From a virus (taxonomy: Duplodnaviria > Caudoviricetes), in IMG/VR virus record IMGVR_UViG_3300029442_000005, positions 1-61,078 of that record: a stretch of DNA of 61,078 nt. The stretch is one strand, 5' to 3'. The first letter of the stretch is position 1. Each line of letters begins with the position of its first letter. This document shows positions 11,763 to 27,661 of the stretch, piece by piece. The notes beneath the pieces are model-generated. The model was not told the DNA's origin, did not search any database, and saw only the letters and a list, made by a program, of their open reading frames with translations. Made by a program: the position numbers and the translations under genes.

Positions 11763-12388
11763 CCAATAATACCTAAACACTTATTATAAAGTGCAAGTCT
11801 CTGAGGTAAGGTATTAGTGCTTCCACTTATAGTTTGTGTAATATGACTAATATTACCTGTATCAGCTATATCATTGATTTTATTTTTAAACCAAAACCAA
11901 ACTCCTGCGTAAATAGCACCCGGAATAGTTAACAATTTGTCTGGGTCTAGAAGTAAAGAATCATTATCGTATAAATCTAAACTACATTGATAATAATTTG
12001 CTCTGCCAGTAAGTTGAATAATGCCACGTCCCCTAAACATATAACCTTGACCAGAAGTTTCATCTCCATTTCCTAGTCTATTACCATACACTTTATTAGC
12101 TAATAATTCGGGTTGGTGAGCAAATGGTTCAGCTGATTCAAGAGTTGGAAAATATCTAGGAAATACTTCTACAAGACGTTGTGATGTGTAATTAAGATTT
12201 TCTTCAAGTGATAAAAATTGTCCACTTTCATAAGAACATTGTGAAATAAATGCAGCAATTCTTTGTTCAGTAATTATATTGAAGTCAGGAATTATTTGGT
12301 CCAAATAGAAAAACCATTCTGTACAATTTGCATTACGGGGAAGCATTAGTGCTAAAGTTTCAGCTGTAAAATTACATGTAAAAGGCAT
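11759..12388 (-). CDS. Endolysin, glycoside hydrolase family 19
   Basis: AAFISQCSYESGQF-LEENLNY and GYMFRGRGIIQLTGRANY GH19 motifs; start moved to 12388 (MPFT), just after the upstream stop. Confidence 0.88.
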   Translation of the reverse strand: MPFTCNFTAETLALMLPRNANCTEWFFYLDQIIPDFNIITEQRIAAFISQCSYESGQFLSLEENLNYTSQRLVEVFPRYFPTLESAEPFAHQPELLANKVYGNRLGNGDETSGQGYMFRGRGIIQLTGRANYYQCSLDLYDNDSLLLDPDKLLTIPGAIYAGVWFWFKNKINDIADTGNISHITQTISGSTNTLPQRLALYNKCLGIIG

Positions 12389-12389
12389 A

Positions 12390-12596
12390 TTATTCAGTTT
12401 TTCGGTACTGTCTGGACACATCTGCAAGTCGTTTTTCGTCTTCTAATCTACGTACATCATTCATTATTCGAAGCTTATTAATTTGATCTAACCTTAATCG
12501 TGTTTTTCTAACATCAGATAATTTTGGAATACTATTATCATCTTCTGTACTAGTAAATCCAACTGAAGCTATTTCAAAAATTTCGTTTAGTATCAT
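12390..12596 (-). CDS. Small hypothetical phage protein
   Basis: MILNEIF...RKTRLRLDQINKLRIMNDVR; start 12596 lies 5 nt after TAAATA (12602-12607). Confidence 0.7.
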   Translation of the reverse strand: MILNEIFEIASVGFTSTEDDNSIPKLSDVRKTRLRLDQINKLRIMNDVRRLEDEKRLADVSRQYRKTE

Positions 12597-12600
12597 ATAA

Positions 12601-13119
12601 TTATTTATCAAAATATCTTTGTATTTCTTCTAGTGTAAGTTGTCTGCCTGTAGTTGGTAATAATAGTCCACCGTCAGCCATTGTTCCTACACCTACTAGT
12701 GTATTAACTGATTGTTCCATCATATTTTCAGCTTTATATCCAAATAATAAATTTTTTAATCCTTGTATATTAGACATTTCAAATATACCACCTTCTGAAG
12801 TAGATGTAACTTGACCAGTTATTGGTAATTTAATATTAATAGTACCTTGAGGAATTTCTACATTAAGTACATCACCGACAATTTCAAACTTATTAGCGTC
12901 GCACAATAAACTTTTTGCAAAATTATCTAAAGTAAGTTGTACTTTGATATCTGATATTATTTTAACACAGACATGACTGCTATGATAAAGTAAATCATAT
13001 GGCATATCAATTCCAGCTATAATTCTATCAGCTAATGTAAAATTATATTTACTTCTATGTAGCAAAAAATCAATAGTAATAAAACTTACAAATGTCAGTA
13101 ACACAAATAGCGCAACCAT
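12601..13119 (-). CDS. Membrane-anchored glycine-cleavage-H (GcvH)-like protein
   Basis: N-terminal TM MVALFVLLTFVSFITIDFLL; GIDMPYDLLYHSSHVCVK..VQLTLDNFAKSLL, KLPITGQV and TMADGG resemble GcvH-fold proteins; GTAGGAGA RBS and TATAAATA (13140-13147) support start 13119. Confidence 0.6.
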   Translation of the reverse strand: MVALFVLLTFVSFITIDFLLHRSKYNFTLADRIIAGIDMPYDLLYHSSHVCVKIISDIKVQLTLDNFAKSLLCDANKFEIVGDVLNVEIPQGTINIKLPITGQVTSTSEGGIFEMSNIQGLKNLLFGYKAENMMEQSVNTLVGVGTMADGGLLLPTTGRQLTLEEIQRYFDK

Positions 13120-13182
13120 AAAAATATCTCCTACAGTAGTATTTATAATATTAGTTGAAATTGTCATATTTTTATGCTATCA

Positions 13183-13190
13183 TATAAATA
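13183..13190 (+). promoter_or_regulatory. T4-type late promoter TATAAATA
   Basis: Exact consensus 18 nt upstream of ATG 13209; divergent partner at 13140-13147 on the - strand. Confidence 0.7.
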
Positions 13191-13208
13191 GTAAAGAGAA
13201 TATAGTTT

Positions 13209-15014
13209 ATGACAATACAAGAAGAAATTCAACAAATGATAAATGAGTTAAATCCAAAGAGTTATGTAAGATGGATTCAAAATAGGCCTCATTTAATGAG
13301 TTGGATAACTGAAAAACAAATTGAATTACATACAAATAATATACCAGAAACTTTATTTTGTATTACTAATAACATTATACCTCCTCTGTGTGATTGTGGT
13401 TCTAAAGTATTATTTGCTACTTTTATAAAAGGGTATCGAAAATTTTGTAGTTTTAATTGTCCAATTAAAGGCCAAATACATTCAAAAACTATTAAAAAGA
13501 TGTGGAAAGATAATCCTACCAAACTTAAAGAAATGGTCGAAAAGAAAGAAGCAACCAATTTTTTAAAATATGGTTTTAAAAATGCTATTAATAACAAAGA
13601 TGTGCAAGATAAAGCTCGAAAAACTTGTCAAGAAAAGTATGGTACTGATACTCCTTTTGAAAGTAAAGAAATTCAAGAAAAGATATCAAATACAAATTTA
13701 AAAAAGTATGGGGTTGAAAGACCATTTCAGAATAAAGCTATTTTAGACAAAACAATAGCTACATTCGAAAAGAATCATGGTGAAAAGAATAAAATGCAGT
13801 TAGCTAGATCTGCATGGAAATTACAAAATAGTGGGTTAAATCCTTTCCAAACTCCTGAAGTAAAACAAAAAATTCAAGACTATTGGCAAATAAATTATGG
13901 TGTTAATCATCCAAATCAAGTTCCTCAGATATTAGCAAAATGTTCAGAAACTTTAATGAAAAATTATGGAGTTACAAATCCAGCTCAAATTGGATTGCCT
14001 GTTGAAAGCTTATTAGTATTATCTGATCCAACTTTGTTATCAAAAAAATTAATTACATATGGACTACAAACATTAAGTAAACAACTTAAAGTACGGCCAG
14101 AATTAATAGTTAGTTATCATCACCGTCTTGGATTAACCATATTACCCAAACAAACAAGAAGTTTACTTGAAGATGATGTTTATACGTTTTTATTAACACT
14201 TGGAATAACAGTATTAAGAAATGATCGAAAAATCATTTCTCCATATGAATTAGATTTTGTTTTACCAGAATACAACTTAGCAATAGAATTTAATGGATTA
14301 TATTGGCACAGTGAAAAAGCTGGAATGAAAGATAAAAAATATCATAATATGAAATTTTCAAACTGTGTTGAAAAGAACTTTCAATTGATTACTATTTGGG
14401 AAGATGAATGGATTAATAAAAGTAGTATTATTAAAAATCATATTAGACATTTAGTTCAGAAAACAAATAAAGTAATTGGTGCCAGGCAATTAACAATTAA
14501 AGCCATAAACTTATCTGAAGCTAATATATTTTTAGAAAATACTCATATTCAAGGATCAGTATTAAGTAGTAAAATTACCTTAGGGGCATATTTCAATAAT
14601 GCTTTAATAAGCATACTTACTACGTCTCAAATTGGTACTAATCCGATTGCAATTACACGATGGTCAGTTGATCAACAAGCTAGTTATCCAGGATTATTAA
14701 GCAAATTTATAAGTCATTTATCTCAAAATTATAATATAACTGAGATTGAAACAATTGCTGATCTACGTTGGAGTATCGGAAAAAGTTATATTGCAAGTGG
14801 ATTTGTATTAGATCATGTAATTGAACCTGATTATCAATATACCGATTATGTTACAAGAGATCATAAATTTAATTTAAGAAAAGATAAAATTAAAAAACGA
14901 TATAATGTTGATATTGAAGATAAAACAGAAAAGGAATTGTGTGAATTGCTTGGATTTGATCGTATTTGGGATTGTGGTAAATTAAAATTCAAGTGGTCAC
15001 AAAAAAGCAGTTGA
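13209..15014 (+). CDS. Putative homing endonuclease (Hef/Vsr-like), paralog 2
   Basis: CDCG..FCSFNC, KYG repeats, ELDFVLPEYNLAIEFNGLYWHSE, RIWDCG. Confidence 0.75.
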   Translation: MTIQEEIQQMINELNPKSYVRWIQNRPHLMSWITEKQIELHTNNIPETLFCITNNIIPPLCDCGSKVLFATFIKGYRKFCSFNCPIKGQIHSKTIKKMWKDNPTKLKEMVEKKEATNFLKYGFKNAINNKDVQDKARKTCQEKYGTDTPFESKEIQEKISNTNLKKYGVERPFQNKAILDKTIATFEKNHGEKNKMQLARSAWKLQNSGLNPFQTPEVKQKIQDYWQINYGVNHPNQVPQILAKCSETLMKNYGVTNPAQIGLPVESLLVLSDPTLLSKKLITYGLQTLSKQLKVRPELIVSYHHRLGLTILPKQTRSLLEDDVYTFLLTLGITVLRNDRKIISPYELDFVLPEYNLAIEFNGLYWHSEKAGMKDKKYHNMKFSNCVEKNFQLITIWEDEWINKSSIIKNHIRHLVQKTNKVIGARQLTIKAINLSEANIFLENTHIQGSVLSSKITLGAYFNNALISILTTSQIGTNPIAITRWSVDQQASYPGLLSKFISHLSQNYNITEIETIADLRWSIGKSYIASGFVLDHVIEPDYQYTDYVTRDHKFNLRKDKIKKRYNVDIEDKTEKELCELLGFDRIWDCGKLKFKWSQKSS

Positions 15015-21936: not shown

Positions 21937-23691
21937 ATGATAAAACTTAACAGCGTTACCATTAAAAACTTTCTTTCTATCGGCAATAATACACAAAGTG
22001 TCCAACTTGATACAGATCAATTAACACTTGTATTAGGTGAAAATATTGATCTAGGAGGTGAAGATTCTGGAAATCGTAATGGCGTCGGTAAGTCTTCTCT
22101 ATTCCAAGCTATTTCTTATGCATTATTTGGACAATCATTATCTGGAATCAAAAAAGATAATCTTATAAACAAAACAAACGCTAAGAATATGTTAGTTACA
22201 TGCGATTTTTCAATTAATGGTAAAAAATATCGTATTGAGCGCGGACGAAAGCCTGGCATTTTAAAATTTTTAATTGATGAAGTTGAACAAGTAACTGTTG
22301 ATCAATCAATGGGCGACAGTGCTGAAACTCAACTTGTTATTAATAAACTTCTTGGTATGACTCATATTATGTTTAAGAATATTGTCTTACTTAATACATA
22401 TACTGAGCCATTTCTGAACATGTCAGTTGGTGATCAACGTATTATTATTGAACAGTTACTTGGGATTACGTTACTAACAGAAAAAGCTGACAAGTTACGT
22501 GAACAGATGAAAACTACTAAGGAACTTATCTGTAAAGAAGACATGAGAATCGTAGCAGTTCAAAATGCAAATAAACGATTGCAGGAACAAATCGATAGTA
22601 CTAAGCGTCGGCAAAAAATGTGGCTTGCAAAACACAAAGAAGATGAAGGCAATTTAACTATTGCAATAAATGAGTTATCAAATATAAACATAACAGAAGA
22701 GATTCAAAATCACAAAAATCAAGCACAATATAATAGCTATCTACAAGAAATTAAAGAGTTAAATAGTAATTTAGATCGAAAAAAGTCTGATTTACAAAAA
22801 GATTTAAAGTCTATTGAAAAACTTAAGAAAGAAATAAGTTCACTCAACGAAAATACGTGTTATGCTTGTGGTCAATCAGTTCATAATCATCAAGATCAAA
22901 TTGTTGATAAAGAACAATCATTAACTTCTGCCCAAACATCACTAACAAGTTTAAAAGCCGACATAGTTACATTTAATATGAAGATATTAAACTTAAAAGT
23001 TATTGAAAAACCTACTGTAACATGGTATGATAATGTCAACGATGCTATTGAACACAAAAGTAACTTAGAAAATTTAAAGCAGCAGTTAATGCTCAAACAG
23101 CAAGAAATTGACCCATATTCAGAACAAATAGAAGATATGAATATTAAAGGTTTAGAAGAGATAAAATTTGATACTATGAATGGATTGAAACGCATTCAAG
23201 ACCACGAAGATTTCTTATTAAAGCTGCTAACAAATAAAGATAGTTTTATCCGTAAACAAATTATTAATCAAAATTTAACATTTTTAAATTCTAGATTGAG
23301 CTACTACTTATATAAGTTAGGATTACCTCACACTGTTGTATTTCAAAATGACTTATCTGTCACTATTACTGAATTTGGCAGAGATCTAGATTGGGGTAAT
23401 CTATCAAGAGGTGAAGCAAGTAGAACTATTTTAAGTTTAAGTTTGAGTTTTAGGGATGTATGGGAAAGCCTATATCAACCAATTAATCTGTTGAGTTTAG
23501 ATGAGATGTTAGATAGTGGAATTGATACTGCTGGCGTTGAAAATGCCATGGGCATCTTAAAGCATATGTCTAGGGATAAAAAGAGAAGTGTTTGGTTAGT
23601 AAGTCATAGAGAAGAATTAGCAAGTAGAGTAAATAGTACTGTTGTAGTTACTAAAGAAAATGGGTTTTCACAATTTCACCAGGATAAATAA
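21937..23691 (+). CDS. gp46: Recombination ATPase, gp46 / Rad50-SbcC-like
   Basis: Walker A NGVGKS, coiled coil with CYAC zinc hook, LSRGE signature, LSLDE Walker B, VSH. Confidence 0.95.
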   Translation: MIKLNSVTIKNFLSIGNNTQSVQLDTDQLTLVLGENIDLGGEDSGNRNGVGKSSLFQAISYALFGQSLSGIKKDNLINKTNAKNMLVTCDFSINGKKYRIERGRKPGILKFLIDEVEQVTVDQSMGDSAETQLVINKLLGMTHIMFKNIVLLNTYTEPFLNMSVGDQRIIIEQLLGITLLTEKADKLREQMKTTKELICKEDMRIVAVQNANKRLQEQIDSTKRRQKMWLAKHKEDEGNLTIAINELSNINITEEIQNHKNQAQYNSYLQEIKELNSNLDRKKSDLQKDLKSIEKLKKEISSLNENTCYACGQSVHNHQDQIVDKEQSLTSAQTSLTSLKADIVTFNMKILNLKVIEKPTVTWYDNVNDAIEHKSNLENLKQQLMLKQQEIDPYSEQIEDMNIKGLEEIKFDTMNGLKRIQDHEDFLLKLLTNKDSFIRKQIINQNLTFLNSRLSYYLYKLGLPHTVVFQNDLSVTITEFGRDLDWGNLSRGEASRTILSLSLSFRDVWESLYQPINLLSLDEMLDSGIDTAGVENAMGILKHMSRDKKRSVWLVSHREELASRVNSTVVVTKENGFSQFHQDK

Positions 23692-23696
23692 TATGT

Positions 23697-24149
23697 ATGA
23701 ACACTGGACACTGGTCTTTCCCACATGACTTTAACCCTGACGAATGGTTTGGCTTTATATATAGAATAATTGAAATAGATACTGGTCGAGAATATATCGG
23801 AAAGAAACAGTTTCATCAACTTCTTAAAAAGAAAGTTAAGAATAGGGTTAACAAGAAACATATCAAGAAAGATTCAGACTGGATGACTTACACTAGCTCG
23901 TCAGAGCATATCAACAATGCAATTAAACTTAAGGGTATGAGTAACTATCAGTTTTTTATTGAATCACTACATAAAACTAGAGCTTCATTATACTATGCTG
24001 AGATAAATGTACAAATTCATGAAGATGTATTGCGTACTAGATTAGCAGATGGAGTTACACCAAAATATTTTAATAGATGTATTAGTTCTAATGTTAAATT
24101 TATTCCACCAATGGAAACTTTAGAAGAATCACAGATGAAAAGTAGTTGA
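23697..24149 (+). CDS. GIY-YIG nuclease (endonuclease II/Seg-like)
   Basis: FGFIYRII...GREYIGKKQF...SDWMTYTSSS; TAAATA at 23685-23690. Confidence 0.8.
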   Translation: MNTGHWSFPHDFNPDEWFGFIYRIIEIDTGREYIGKKQFHQLLKKKVKNRVNKKHIKKDSDWMTYTSSSEHINNAIKLKGMSNYQFFIESLHKTRASLYYAEINVQIHEDVLRTRLADGVTPKYFNRCISSNVKFIPPMETLEESQMKSS

Positions 24150-24175
24150 CACTTGTTACTGTTTCATGTTACTAT
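24146..24175 (+). promoter_or_regulatory. Sigma70-like promoter
   Basis: TTGACA (24146-24151), 18-nt spacer, TGn-TACTAT (24170-24175), 5 nt before ATG 24181. Confidence 0.65.
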
Positions 24176-24180
24176 TGTAT

Positions 24181-24621
24181 ATGAAGGAACGGAGAATACA
24201 GAAAGAAATTAAACAAACTGATTTCTCAAAAGTGCATTTTCTTCTTCCCACAAATAGATATCAAATCTTTCCATCGAATTCACAAAAGGATCAACTTTGT
24301 AAATTATTTGATGATAGCTGGATTGATGAAATTATTTGGCAGAGTTATAATTTACCAGAAAATTCACTTAATAGAATGCCAAAGTATGCAAAGTTAAACA
24401 AAGTATCTACGTATAGAAAAATTATACGTTCCACAAAACAAGTTAAATTTGAAGAAGAATATATACAGATTAAATCAAAAATTGGAAAGATCAAAATTTC
24501 ACTAAAAATTAAAAATTTATCAGAGTTCAACTATGTTGTTATTCATACTGCTAATAATGAGCAATGGTTCATTGATTTTGAAAATATCGCTGAACCAATT
24601 TGGGCAGATGAAAAAATCTAA
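24181..24621 (+). CDS. Hypothetical basic protein
   Basis: ORF track entry 24166-24621; start moved to 24181 because 24166 lies inside the promoter; no motif recognised. Confidence 0.6.
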   Translation: MKERRIQKEIKQTDFSKVHFLLPTNRYQIFPSNSQKDQLCKLFDDSWIDEIIWQSYNLPENSLNRMPKYAKLNKVSTYRKIIRSTKQVKFEEEYIQIKSKIGKIKISLKIKNLSEFNYVVIHTANNEQWFIDFENIAEPIWADEKI

Positions 24622-24649
24622 TGTGAATAATATCATGATAAATAATTTT

Positions 24650-25225
24650 AGGGAGGTAACTTTATAAAATATTAAAATAAACACATTTTTATTGGTTATA
24701 ATCACAATAAAAATGTAGTAACATATTACTTCATCCAGATAGCATTAACAGTGGTTGAATGCAGCTAATCTTAAAGAGGATCGAAAGCGGATGAGAAAGG
24801 GGTTGTTCATCTCGAACAACTGGCCATAGCTCGGGTTATCAAAAAGAGATAAGAACTCGAAGTAGATACGTATTGAACTGAGTGAAAACTTGGAAGAACT
24901 TACGGTTATGGTGTAGTGTGTAAAATGATTATATATAACTTAAAATTTGAATTCTTAATAGCAGGTCTATTAATTTTGGATTGAAGGTAGAATTACACAA
25001 ATAACGATGATGGAAATGAGAGAAAGCAACCATCACTTGACATAAGTTTTTTTGTTAACTAATATCAAGCACCGCTGGGCTAACTTTGTTAGCAAAAATT
25101 AGAATGAGTAGGTACAGGCCAACCGCCTACGATAAAATAGTTCTAAACAAAAATGAATCAAATTTGTTATTAAAAGTTATAACGTCGCTGATTTTTATTT
25201 TTTCTAGAAATAGGAAAAATATGAA
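24650..25225 (+). ncRNA. Candidate large structured non-coding RNA (~570 nt), family unassigned
   Basis: No ORF; GATAAATA at 24637-24644; more than 12 nested helices with + strand G-U pairs and GAAA tetraloops; boundaries approximate. Confidence 0.6.
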
Positions 25226-25266
25226 TTAAATATCATATTAAACAAATAGAAACATAATAAGAAAAG

Positions 25267-25673
25267 AACTTCGAGTGAAACGAAAATGAGTTTAGTACAA
25301 ATGAGTTGAGCGAATGCGAAACGAAGTTGTACTAAACGAAATGTGTTACTGCAAGAACGAAGTGAAGGCAGTAACTAACTGAGTGAGCATTGCGAACGAA
25401 AATAATAACAAATGAAAAACATAATAGAACAAATAAAATTAATGAATATTTCTAAAATAAATTTTGTGTGTACTAAAAAATTTGTGAGTTATATATTCGC
25501 TGCGCTCTGTCGTTGCACTCGCGTTGCTCGTCGCAACGATAATGGAACATCAGATTTTCTTCGCAGTCGTTCGTTACACTCACTCAGCTCTGAAAATCCA
25601 TTTCTTTCACTTCGTTTTTCTTTTCTATTCGCTTCGCTTCTGTAGCTGCATTCGCTGCGCTCATACAGCTACA
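25267..25673. other. Divergent array of G.A-mismatch mini-hairpins around an AT-rich spacer (candidate origin/ssDNA signal)
   Basis: Four GA-NN-loop-NN-GA elements on + (25273-25399) and six on - (25497-25662); several are enclosed by perfect 7-10 bp stems. Confidence 0.55.
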
Positions 25674-25739
25674 AAAGCAAAATGAATCTAAATTTTTGCG
25701 AATTAAAAACAAATTTTTTTATGAAATTGAGTTCCGAAT

Positions 25740-25916
25740 TTAAAAATATGGAAGTTGTGTTTTACTTGTTATTTCGAGATTGCTTTTTACTATATCATTG
25801 AGAATTTCTCTGTCTTTTTCACTTAGCTGATACATTTCAGTCAATGAAATACCGCCACGTAAAAACCAACATAATGTATAAATTTCTTTCTTAATTACTT
25901 TAATGTTGTGCTCCAT
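25740..25916 (-). CDS. Small baseplate/tail assembly protein (gp51-like), probably the -1 frameshift extension of the upstream gene
   Basis: 58-aa ORF below the track cutoff: MEHNIKVIKKEIYTLCWFLRGGISLTEMYQLSEKDREILNDIVKSNLEITSKTQLPYF; frame stays open back to the T8 run at 25972-25979. Confidence 0.7.
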   Translation of the reverse strand: MEHNIKVIKKEIYTLCWFLRGGISLTEMYQLSEKDREILNDIVKSNLEITSKTQLPYF

Positions 25917-25957
25917 ATTATCAAGTAACTTCTGTGTTTCTTCAGAAGTATTCGATG

Positions 25958-26791
25958 CTAGAAGCTTAGAGAAAAAAAACTTGTATACTCTAGACTAAAT
26001 TCTGTTTTAAATTCTTCCCTACAACTTTCACACATAAGTTCTAACTTATTACATTTAGTTGCTTCTTTGAGTTTAGCAGTATGCATTTTGAGTTTATCAC
26101 CAGTTGACTTATCAGCATTAACTACAAACTCATGTATGAAATCTCTTTCAGTTACTAATTGACCCTTAACAGCAATATTATTAATAGTATTGATAATAAA
26201 TAACACTTCTAATTGCTGTAACTCGTTTATAATAGTATTTGTAATATGCTCTTTTTCATCTGGATCTTTAACATCATTTATCTGTTTAGATTGTTTCTGA
26301 TATTGAAATAATTTTAACTGATGATCACATTGTTGTTTAAAAGAGCACGGTTTGAAAGTAAATGATAAATCTCCAATTACAAGTTTCTCATTCCATAAAT
26401 TTGAATTAAATTTTGAAAGATGATCTTTCAAATCTATATCATAATGACTAACTTCTTTACATTTTCTACATGTTGCTTCTATGGACATTTTTTCGCCCAT
26501 ACTTGCAATCCGTATAGCTATAAGTATTGATTCTATATCAATGCTTGGAATACCCCACGCATCATTAATACCTACAATACAATTTTGTACTAAACTAACT
26601 GTAGCTTCTCCACTCATTAATGCTTCAGGAGTCTGTAACAAAATTTCATCAGCAGCCGTCATACTCATTACTGGTAATTCACCAGATATTGGAAGACTAA
26701 GACTTCCATCGGGCCACCATCTACCATTACTTGGTAGTCTTAGATATAATGATGGTTGTCTAAAATATGCTTTAAGTGGATTGTCTGCCAT
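25958..26791 (-). CDS. gp26: Baseplate hub assembly protein, gp26-like
   Basis: NPLKAYFRQP..LPSNG, MTAADEILL, DIESILIAIRIASMGE, two CxxC pairs, ends SFF. Confidence 0.75.
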   Translation of the reverse strand: MADNPLKAYFRQPSLYLRLPSNGRWWPDGSLSLPISGELPVMSMTAADEILLQTPEALMSGEATVSLVQNCIVGINDAWGIPSIDIESILIAIRIASMGEKMSIEATCRKCKEVSHYDIDLKDHLSKFNSNLWNEKLVIGDLSFTFKPCSFKQQCDHQLKLFQYQKQSKQINDVKDPDEKEHITNTIINELQQLEVLFIINTINNIAVKGQLVTERDFIHEFVVNADKSTGDKLKMHTAKLKEATKCNKLELMCESCREEFKTEFSLEYTSFFSLSF

Positions 26792-26794
26792 AGA

Positions 26795-27661
26795 TTACTC
26801 GAAAAAGGTTGATAAGTTAAAGTTGATTGGCACTTCCCAACTCTTAGGAGCTCCAATTAATTCTTGTTCAGGTGTAGCATATACTGTTTGAGTTTTAAAT
26901 GTTAGCTTTTCTTTTTGTGCATCAACGTGAGCTTGAATAGATCTAAAATATTCTAAATCAATCATTGCTATAAATTGCTTGATTTCATTTGAATTTTCTG
27001 TTGTAAATTCATCAGTTGATACTTTTCTAATACTATCACCAATCATATTAACTGATATGTTACCTAAGCTTTTCATTTGAGTATCTAATTCATTTATTTT
27101 TTCGTCGTTAGATGAAGAGCTGGTTGTTATATCAGATGCTAATTGTTGCTGTTTTATAATTTGCTTTGTAGCCAAGAATAGTGTTCGTAAATTGATAGGC
27201 TTAATAAGTAAATGTAATGTATTACCAGACTCGTTAGATATGTTAAGTTCTTCATCCCAAATAGCTTCTGCATTTGGAAAATCTTTAACAAGCTGTTCTA
27301 TACTTAAATTTATATCTTGAAACTTATCTGTACCAGGGATAGAAACATTATACTTAATTTGGTCACCTTGACTTGCACGTCTAATACTCATCATAATGAC
27401 ATCTAAGTCAACAATTGGAATTTGTTCAGGATCTTTTAAAGCAGGTACACAACTCTTAATAAGGTCGTATGTTGCTTGACTACTTAATAATATTTCACTT
27501 GTTTTGAATCTTGTGTCATCAGAAGCCGTCATTGCATATATTTCTACTTCACCATTAGTAGAACTAATTGTATTTTTTGGATACCATTTTCCTCTACTTG
27601 GTAATAATATAGTAAATTTTGGTTTTCTGAAAAATTGTTGTAATGGGTTGGTTTTATTCAT
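26795..27661 (-). CDS. gp26-like paralog lacking CxxC motifs
   Basis: NPLQQFFRKP..LPSRG, MTASDD, DLDVIMMSIRRASQGD align with the downstream gene. Confidence 0.7.
   Translation of the reverse strand: MNKTNPLQQFFRKPKFTILLPSRGKWYPKNTISSTNGEVEIYAMTASDDTRFKTSEILLSSQATYDLIKSCVPALKDPEQIPIVDLDVIMMSIRRASQGDQIKYNVSIPGTDKFQDINLSIEQLVKDFPNAEAIWDEELNISNESGNTLHLLIKPINLRTLFLATKQIIKQQQLASDITTSSSSNDEKINELDTQMKSLGNISVNMIGDSIRKVSTDEFTTENSNEIKQFIAMIDLEYFRSIQAHVDAQKEKLTFKTQTVYATPEQELIGAPKSWEVPINFNLSTFFE

Follow-up and report, generated by a model that had tools for sequence, protein, structure and literature searches.

A stretch of 61,078 nucleotides (nt) of viral DNA (Duplodnaviria; Caudoviricetes; IMG/VR record IMGVR_UViG_3300029442_000005), referred to here as the window, almost certainly contains a true member of a family of large structured RNAs, as judged by sequence comparison with copies from jumbo phages. 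The window element would be a single-copy gene for a large compact non-coding RNA on the + strand, from 24997 to ~25400, possibly with a 5′ extension from ~24715 that would bring it to roughly 700 bases. By the same comparison, the family is the Polynucleobacter-1 motif (Rfam RF01718) extended to ~400-550 nt, and the window represents a branch with a different, larger 5′ domain. Polynucleobacter-1 is catalogued as a 141-nt candidate cis-regulator of freshwater Burkholderiales; in the reading given here it forms the first quarter of a ~400-550-nt RNA, of which only the first ~140 bases were previously described. Few large RNAs of unknown function are on record from bacteria and phages, and this family, which is well supported, joins them.

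A gp46 scan of the viral_contigs collection gave 80 loci at 45-57% identity. Searches with the intergenic DNA using nhmmer showed a conserved block, equivalent to 25000-25135 of the window and always on the gp46 strand, which was present in 53 of the 80 loci after three rounds. A consensus pattern marked at least 120 stretches in viral_contigs, and 177 of the 279 loci from viral and metagenome collections match the core profile, a set in which copies common to the two collections are both counted and for which the collection scan gives a lower bound. The family is found in well over a hundred jumbo-phage contigs, and its typical members measure 375-430 nt. The core occurs exactly once per genome in all five jumbo-phage records studied (220-355 kilobases (kb); three of them 99-100% complete). 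The family is carried by jumbo myoviruses of fresh water and other aquatic habitats, for which gp46 points to PA5oct-like phages as the closest in culture, and it is sporadic in small Burkholderiales genomes.

Comparative evidence for a conserved RNA comes from the pairing of the core. Fifty-nine core sequences were aligned with MAFFT (alignment A3), six nested helices were set (Pa, a small helix in the Pa loop, Pb, Pc, Pd and Pe), and a pseudoknot was added in which GUUGA, on the strand that follows Pb, pairs with UCAAC of the Pd loop. Paired cells make up 88.7% in A3 and 72.4% in shuffles (none of 500 as high), and pairing drops to 42-50% when the partners are slid by 1-3 columns. Cells with both sides changed number 374, against 120 in shuffles, and the pairs changed on both sides within the family are 4 of 6 in Pa, 11 of 12 in Pb, 4 of 4 in Pc and 4 of 6 in Pd. 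The pseudoknot is paired in 98.3% of A3, with AU, GC, UA and CG all found at one position.

A covariance model, R1, was built from A3 (59 sequences, window excluded) with the pseudoknot left out, and was run on 78 non-seed loci that carry a Polynucleobacter-1 domain, on the window and on three bacterial loci. The core was found in 76 of the 78 non-seed loci and in the window. The resulting non-seed alignment (A5, 68 distinct sequences) is 84.8% paired against 59.9% in shuffles, with slides at 35-49%. The pseudoknot, although outside the model, is 96.2% paired on A5, with exchanges of UA 41/CG 25, GC 48/AU 18 and UA 47/GC 12. In the window, R1 matches 24997-25150 on the + strand at 55.4 bits (E-value 1.4e-13), the second-best match there reaching 10.7 bits, and the alignment places the following parts.

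24997-25150, + strand: conserved core with Pa, Pb, Pc, Pd and the pseudoknot (R1 match)
25008-25035, + strand: Pa, TGATGG/CCATCA around the conserved loop AAAUGAGAGAAAGCAA (model alignment)
25036-25069, + strand: Pb, local hairpin CTTGA...TCAAG (R1 alignment and minimum-free-energy (MFE) fold)
25074-25078 with 25119-25123, + strand: pseudoknot, GCUGG with CCAAC of the Pd loop (4 of 5 pairs)
25079-25093, + strand: lineage-specific insertion hairpin, GCTAAC/GTTAGC (insertion in the R1 alignment)
25100-25145, + strand: Pc, TAGAAT/GTTCTA, around Pd, GTAGG/CCTAC, with loop UACAGGCCAACCG; Pe reduced

The C-A mismatch in the window's pseudoknot recurs in the family, in 5 of the 59 sequences of A3 and 6 of the 68 of A5. 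Different insertions occupy the GCTAAC/GTTAGC site in two other loci (L053 and L055).

The 3′ half of the RNA is conserved as well. In an alignment of 66 sequences (A4), helices Pf, Pg and Ph are 83.9% paired, compared with 62.7% in shuffles, and the family Pg helix covaries. The family also conserves an A-rich linker and at least one hairpin whose internal motif is of the GA/GNRA type; most members have a terminal hairpin as well, and the family 3′ end is a stable hairpin followed by 2-3 U. Pf is flanked by two modules, each consisting of AUGAC, 7-9 nt, ACUC or AUCU, and then a single-stranded word of 7-8 nt. These twin words are an unusual hallmark of the family. As 7-nt words, the two copies match exactly in 65 of 76 unique sequences, while taking 17 values family-wide (GGAUGAU, AGAUAAU, AACAAAA, AUGAAGA and others), and their same-letter covariation ranks near the top of the mutual-information signals of the alignment. 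The corresponding parts of the window are listed below.

25168-25174, + strand: twin word copy 1, UAUUAAA
25196-25221, + strand: Pf hairpin with GAAA loop, between the twin words (R2 alignment; family covariation)
25236-25242, + strand: twin word copy 2, UAUUAAA
25270-25396, + strand: 3′ hairpin domain closed by 25270-25277/25388-25396 (z -3.83)
25290-25337, + strand: Pg-type hairpin with GAGCGAAUGCGAA at 25308-25320
25345-25375, + strand: Pg-type hairpin with loop GAACGAAGUGAA

The alignment of the window to a second model, R2, places Pf and the UAUGA/AUC landmarks. Further 3′, the window has two Pg-type hairpins (GA..GNRA-type..GA motif) and no clear equivalent of the terminal hairpin Ph, and R2 reaches only 13.9 bits. 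When 25260-25410 is folded, the hairpins of 25270-25396 give the z-score of -3.83, with none of 200 shuffles as good, and the motif GAGYGNNNNCGAA is found three times in the window against 0.09 expected. The base composition changes strand near 25450, from which the 3′ end of the RNA is most likely near 25400. A sequence-only reading of the window, which had proposed a large non-coding RNA at 24637-25225, ended it too early, as the element continues for ~175 nt. Readings of the conserved words as a k-turn or C/D-box, a hammerhead, a CsrA site, an anti-Shine-Dalgarno sequence or parts of tmRNA or RNase P were dropped upon inspection by eye only.

The relation to Polynucleobacter-1 is based on its constant position. 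At the Rfam gathering threshold, RF01718 was found in two of ten family loci (L186, 118 bits; L053, 80 bits), directly 5′ of the core, and in the jumbo-phage records G002 and G003 a gap of 15-16 nt separates it from the R1 core, both being on one strand. No candidate was found in records G001 and G004 or in the window record (cut-off 37 bits). By a profile built from five RF01718 matches, 68 of the 177 core-positive loci have the domain directly adjoining the core on its 5′ side, at gaps of -3 to 49 nt and with invariant order and strand; the domain was also present in 14 loci with no core match. The table of Weinberg et al. 2010 (PMC2864571) lists Polynucleobacter-1 under “Burkholderiales, fresh water/estuary”, with “RNA y”, “cis-reg y” and “switch ?”. 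Among 151 sampled Burkholderiales genomes, it exceeded the Rfam cut-off in three, all of 1.8-1.9 megabases. The window copy is the most divergent and would be the largest seen here, and the 5′ domain of this RNA appears exchangeable while the core does not. In family loci such as L117, L099, L148, L048 and L177, two to four copies of (T/A)AGGC(A/T) were seen, located in the 70 nt that precede the RNA and within its 5′ domain; these could be protein-binding or promoter elements.

The candidate 5′ domain of the window is a different matter, and its parts, together with two upstream signals, are as follows.

24637-24644, + strand: GATAAATA, putative late promoter, not supported
24697-24702, + strand: TATAAT, possible sigma-70-type -10 box, ~13 nt 5′ of the folded 5′ domain (from its sequence and position)
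24715-24996, + strand: lineage-specific 5′ domain with TCATCC/GGATGA, GTTGTTC/GAACAAC, GCCATAGC/GTTATGGT, TGTGTAA/TTACACA and TTAATAG/CTATTAA (MFE fold)

The helices given for 24731-24999 in the sequence-only reading match the MFE fold, but the domain barely beats shuffles (24715-24996: + strand z -2.10, 6 of 200 as good; - strand z -1.55). No relative was found among 200 loci with 24640-24996 as nhmmer query, and profiles of the three kinds of family 5′ domain gave no match to the window. The late promoter of the same reading is not supported: GATAAATA is present at 24637, yet only 1 of 76 family members has NATAAATA upstream of the RNA, and the late-promoter box TATAAATA is not enriched in the window (6 on the + and 7 on the - strand against ~12 expected per strand). 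The TATAAT at 24697-24702 was not listed as a promoter by the consensus scan because no fitting -35 box is present; the excerpted text of the PA5oct report (PMC7318152) gives TATAATA/TTGAC for the promoters of that phage. The consensus scan for intrinsic terminators found none in 24000-26200.

Part of the structure seen in the single sequence agrees with the family fold. All 15 complementary word pairs that were checked are fully paired at their coordinates, G-U pairs included, and no long open reading frame (ORF) crosses the element, as each + strand frame of 24622-25411 contains 24-28 stops and the longest open stretch is 56 codons. The idea of a large multi-domain structured RNA is borne out by homology and covariation for 24997 to ~25400, while 24715-24996 is unproven as part of the RNA. 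Folding of 24700-25230 exceeded chance modestly (+ strand z -2.53, 1 of 100 shuffles as good; - strand z -1.39), so that single-sequence thermodynamics gives weak support and the decisive evidence is comparative. Four of the helices proposed from the single sequence are covarying family helices, namely TGATGG/CCATCA (Pa), TAGAAT/GTTCTA (Pc), GTAGG/CCTAC (Pd) and 25196-25221 (Pf). GCTAAC/GTTAGC is present but is a lineage-specific insertion hairpin rather than a family helix. Two proposed long-range helices clash with the family fold and have no counterpart in the family: TTTTTGTT/AACAAAAA takes the loop of the conserved local hairpin Pb (25036-25069), and AATAACGA/TTGTTATT overlaps the first twin word.

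The statement that the RNA matches no known family is true of the window sequence, for which Rfam gave no match at gathering and only noise at E>1. Across the whole window at gathering there were no matches to ROOL, GOLLD, OLE, HEARO, group I or II introns, RNase P or tmRNA; a scan of 24400-25600 at E up to 10 returned only noise and no RF01718, a scan of family locus L016 likewise returned noise, and ARAGORN found no tRNA or tmRNA gene. The further suggestion of a new class can be kept in part: the window is without RF01718, but since 68 of 177 members of its family have Polynucleobacter-1 as 5′ domain, the RNA is not a wholly new class.

The genes next to the RNA differ between phages and bacteria. 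In phages the commonest upstream neighbour is a GIY-YIG gene of 141-148 amino acids (aa) with conserved catalytic-type positions. Of 177 loci, 118 have it immediately 5′ of the core, 20 have it at a greater distance upstream, 35 have none there and 4 are too short to show it. The identity of the GIY-YIG proteins follows that of gp46 weakly (rho 0.17; none of 300 Mantel permutations reach it). Downstream, a gp26-like gene converges on the RNA in 94 of 177 loci, with none within 1.5 kb in 53 and 30 loci too short, and same-strand downstream ORFs, where present, are unrelated between phage groups and bacteria.

In two of three bacterial carriers, R1 gave weak matches directly 3′ of RF01718. Inspected by eye, the bacterial copies show the same order of parts: core, twin words, Pf, Pg hairpin and terminal hairpin. 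Their pseudoknot letters compensate (GUUUC/GAAAC), their twin words are AGCGAAA in L406 and GGCGAAAG in L403, and the Pg hairpin of L406 is UGAGCGAUAAGCGAAA. A divergent DUF6641 gene lies upstream of the RNA in both of two loci (L406, and L403 at 1466-1966); DUF6641 is absent from five virus records, the window included. In L406 (G056:C4, 6730-15738), the RNA is located between Zorya-like genes (EH_Signature, and SNF2 with Mrr_cat) and a 212-aa Phage_integrase gene, surroundings whose gene content is that of a mobile or defence island.

The window is a 61-kb piece of its record, ~17% complete by the CheckV estimate, and its DNA was found in freshwater and lake metagenome runs of four studies. 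Contigs from four DNA runs gave window-identical pieces or none, and no variants. A gp46 scan of metagenome_contigs for closer relatives of the window gave at most 57% identity. By gp46, the closest cultured phages are Pseudomonas phage PA5oct and its kin (44.7% identity), followed by Atu_ph07-like and Rak2-like jumbo phages. The genes around the RNA in the window are listed below.

21937-23691, + strand: gp46/SbcC-like gene
23697-24149, + strand: SegE-type gene of 150 aa with a GIY-YIG nuclease domain only (PF19835, E 1.7e-29; GIY, YIG, E102 and N126 conserved)
24166-24621, + strand: 151-aa ORF between the GIY-YIG gene and the RNA, no family match
25958-26791 and 26795-27661, - strand: two tandem gp26-like baseplate-hub paralogs (PF12322), converging on the RNA

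The GIY-YIG match covers approximately residues 11-129 of proteins of 142-150 aa, in which no other domain was matched. The 151-aa ORF has no relative in viral_contigs, and in relatives of the window the RNA directly follows the GIY-YIG gene with no such ORF between them. Several relatives have one gp26-like gene where the window has two. A 77-aa ORF at 25412-25645 (+ strand) spans a structured block and the composition switch near 25450; it has no Pfam or PHROG match and is probably not a gene. On the minus strand, the block 25480-25680, 3′ of the gp26-like gene, folds strongly (z -5.25, none of 200 shuffles as good) and holds GAGCG..CGAA hairpins like the 3′ hairpins of the RNA, with an R2 match at 25647-25667 (- strand). 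A transcript-end element common to both strands, or another structured RNA, may account for this block.

Searches for the family in sequenced phages and in the literature gave little. No match was obtained by blastn of the window RNA and the RNA of another member (L044) against 50,697 GenBank phage records. In genome_contigs, the consensus pattern gave at least 120 high-GC chance matches; none of the 120 listed passed the family hidden Markov model (HMM), a result uninformative on absence. No description of the extended RNA came up in the literature searches, in which PMC2864571 was the only paper found to name Polynucleobacter-1, and the excerpted text of the preprint bioRxiv 10.64898/2026.10.21.760802 makes no mention of phage. 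In PA5oct (NC_071039.1), the core HMM gave no match. At the syntenic place (12190-13530) that genome has ~1.4 kb with tiny annotated ORFs only and a 660-nt gap, in which R1 matches weakly at 12682-12870 (11.9 bits, E 0.12). This match shares GCUCUG..AAAAAGAU.CAAC and GGUUCCG..GUUGA with the family, and the syntenic stretch is a possible distant homolog in a cultured phage. Four non-coding RNAs are reported for PA5oct, with coordinates elsewhere, in the excerpted text of PMC7318152.

As to function, the reading that we favour overall, tentatively and at somewhat below even chances, is that the family acts as a trans-acting RNA with bivalent recognition. The RNA would be transcribed on the + strand directly after the same-strand gp46 and GIY-YIG genes and would work as a self-contained trans-acting RNA or ribonucleoprotein scaffold, not as a leader. 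Such an RNA is favoured because of its size, pseudoknot, GNRA-type loops, invariant unpaired letters and single copy, and because it occurs in phages and in bacterial islands with differing neighbours and no conserved downstream gene. The conserved unpaired nucleotides of Pa and Pd may form a binding or active centre. The twin words would be specificity elements engaging two copies of one partner, which could be a protein dimer or else a nucleic-acid site that is repeated or has two-fold symmetry. Bivalent recognition of a single partner is suggested because the twin words stay identical yet vary by lineage, and action in trans through these words is, in our estimate, a real possibility that falls short of probable.

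Several results weigh against this interpretation. No partner was located for the twin words. Inside the RNA, sites complementary at 7 of 7 positions numbered 18, against 26 expected, and complementarity to a sequence's own word differed from that to other words by at most 0.25 base pairs in any 20-column bin. No exact reverse complement of the twin words was found in the loci. The 289-kb record G004 contains 14 copies of the word and 12 of its complement, whereas words of equal composition have medians of 19 and 16; this is no enrichment, and no inverted arrangement of the word was seen. Phage and bacterial copies have no protein neighbour in common (GIY-YIG in the one, DUF6641 in the other). 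The bacterial RNA lies directly upstream of an ORF in the manner of a leader, and the 2010 table (PMC2864571) rates the motif as probably cis-regulatory. No RNA run was found to contain the window sequence. The count of pairs with any both-side change is not above that of shuffles (31 of 500 reach it on A4, 161 of 500 on A5). R2 matches the window weakly, with 13.9 bits at 25179-25303 (E 0.0024 in a search of 2.5 kb) and a high composition bias. Finally, 24715-24996 has no relative, so that its membership of the RNA depends only on the MFE fold and a z-score of -2.1.

The leader-like position in bacteria would be explained by a cis-acting element, namely a very large riboswitch-like leader in bacteria and, in phages, a 3′-untranslated-region end structure stopping, stabilising or processing the recombination-gene mRNA. 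We consider this unlikely, although a good deal fits it. The family RNA begins ~15 nt or less after the stop of the upstream ORF, in two bacterial loci it ends just before a same-strand ORF, the 2010 table (PMC2864571) enters “cis-reg: y” for Polynucleobacter-1, and the family 3′ end is a stable terminal hairpin with 2-3 U. The GAGCG..CGAA hairpins also occur on the minus strand after the window's gp26-like gene, which fits a general transcript-end element. However, 400-550 nt with a pseudoknot and invariant loops far exceed the needs of a terminator, the consensus scan found no intrinsic terminator in 24000-26200, no downstream gene is conserved and the next gene converges in 94 of 177 phage loci, and the twin words are left unexplained. 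The words would be accounted for if the RNA were a partner (guide, scaffold or inhibitor) of the adjacent GIY-YIG protein, with the words pairing to target half-sites that two monomers cut; this we regard as very unlikely. Of 177 loci, 118 have the gene immediately before the RNA and 20 more have it at a distance upstream, its product has only the GIY-YIG domain matched (with GIY, YIG, Glu and Asn conserved) and little room for a separate DNA-binding domain, and the words vary by lineage as guide segments do. Against this, 35 of 177 loci are without an upstream GIY-YIG gene, none is found beside the bacterial copies, and G004 has no target-like complement or inverted repeat of the word; the weak agreement with gp46 (rho 0.17) also fits a mobile homing-endonuclease gene beside a conserved RNA gene. 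The specific form in which the twin words guide two GIY-YIG proteins to two half-sites to cut a symmetric target has, in our view, a slim chance of being correct. If true, it would amount to an RNA-guided GIY-YIG nuclease of jumbo phages, with protein-free or otherwise partnered relatives in bacterial islands.

No dedicated protein would be required if this were a self-assembling ornate RNA or a ribozyme, similar in lifestyle to ROOL and GOLLD, which we judge distinctly unlikely. The size, the pseudoknot, the several GNRA-type loops and the invariant unpaired nucleotides are compatible with it, as are the occurrence in phages and in a bacterial mobile or defence island and the lack of a protein neighbour common to all contexts. 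In addition, GOLLD, ROOL and OLE are reported as homo-oligomers in the abstract of PMC12286853. On the other side, there is no Rfam match to ROOL, GOLLD or OLE, and inspection, by eye only, showed no family-conserved self-complementary loop. The sequence-only reading conjectured a structural, packaging or replication-priming role; of these, an origin-of-replication or primer transcript receives very little credence from us. Its position between recombination and baseplate-hub genes recalls T4 oriF, which lies in uvsY next to genes 25/26, and the A-rich linker and purine-rich 3′ part would suit it. The bacterial copies, however, are in islands beside an integrase gene rather than at phage origins, selection on RNA pairing (one-strand G-U included) over more than nine helices is not needed by an R-loop primer, and the change of GC skew at ~25450 is explained by converging transcription.

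Among known systems, the family can be compared with Polynucleobacter-1 itself, which has the same freshwater and Burkholderiales distribution as the extended family. The RF01718 model, however, is only 141 nt long and leaves the family core, pseudoknot, twin words and 3′ hairpins outside, and in the 2010 table (PMC2864571) the motif is a Burkholderiales element with a probable cis-regulatory role and is not linked to jumbo phages. The type III antitoxin RNAs (ToxI-like) are likewise borne by phages or islands and contain direct repeats. The window family differs in repeating only two short words in a unique fold of at least 400 nt, and no ToxN/AbiQ-like gene was seen among the genes neighbouring the RNA. 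ROOL and GOLLD, with which the sequence-only reading drew its comparison, are also large RNAs with extensive structure and unknown function, associated with phages and prophages, but there is no Rfam match to them, and the helices and conserved letters of the window family differ. The omega RNA of IscB/TnpB (HEARO) and the IS110 bridge RNA resemble the family in having a pseudoknotted scaffold, short lineage-variable single-stranded segments and, as in most phage copies, an adjoining small nuclease gene. Rfam gave no match here either, the two variable segments are mutually identical with no target found in G004, and the nuclease is a GIY-YIG protein that is encoded upstream of the RNA in phages and is missing beside the bacterial copies.

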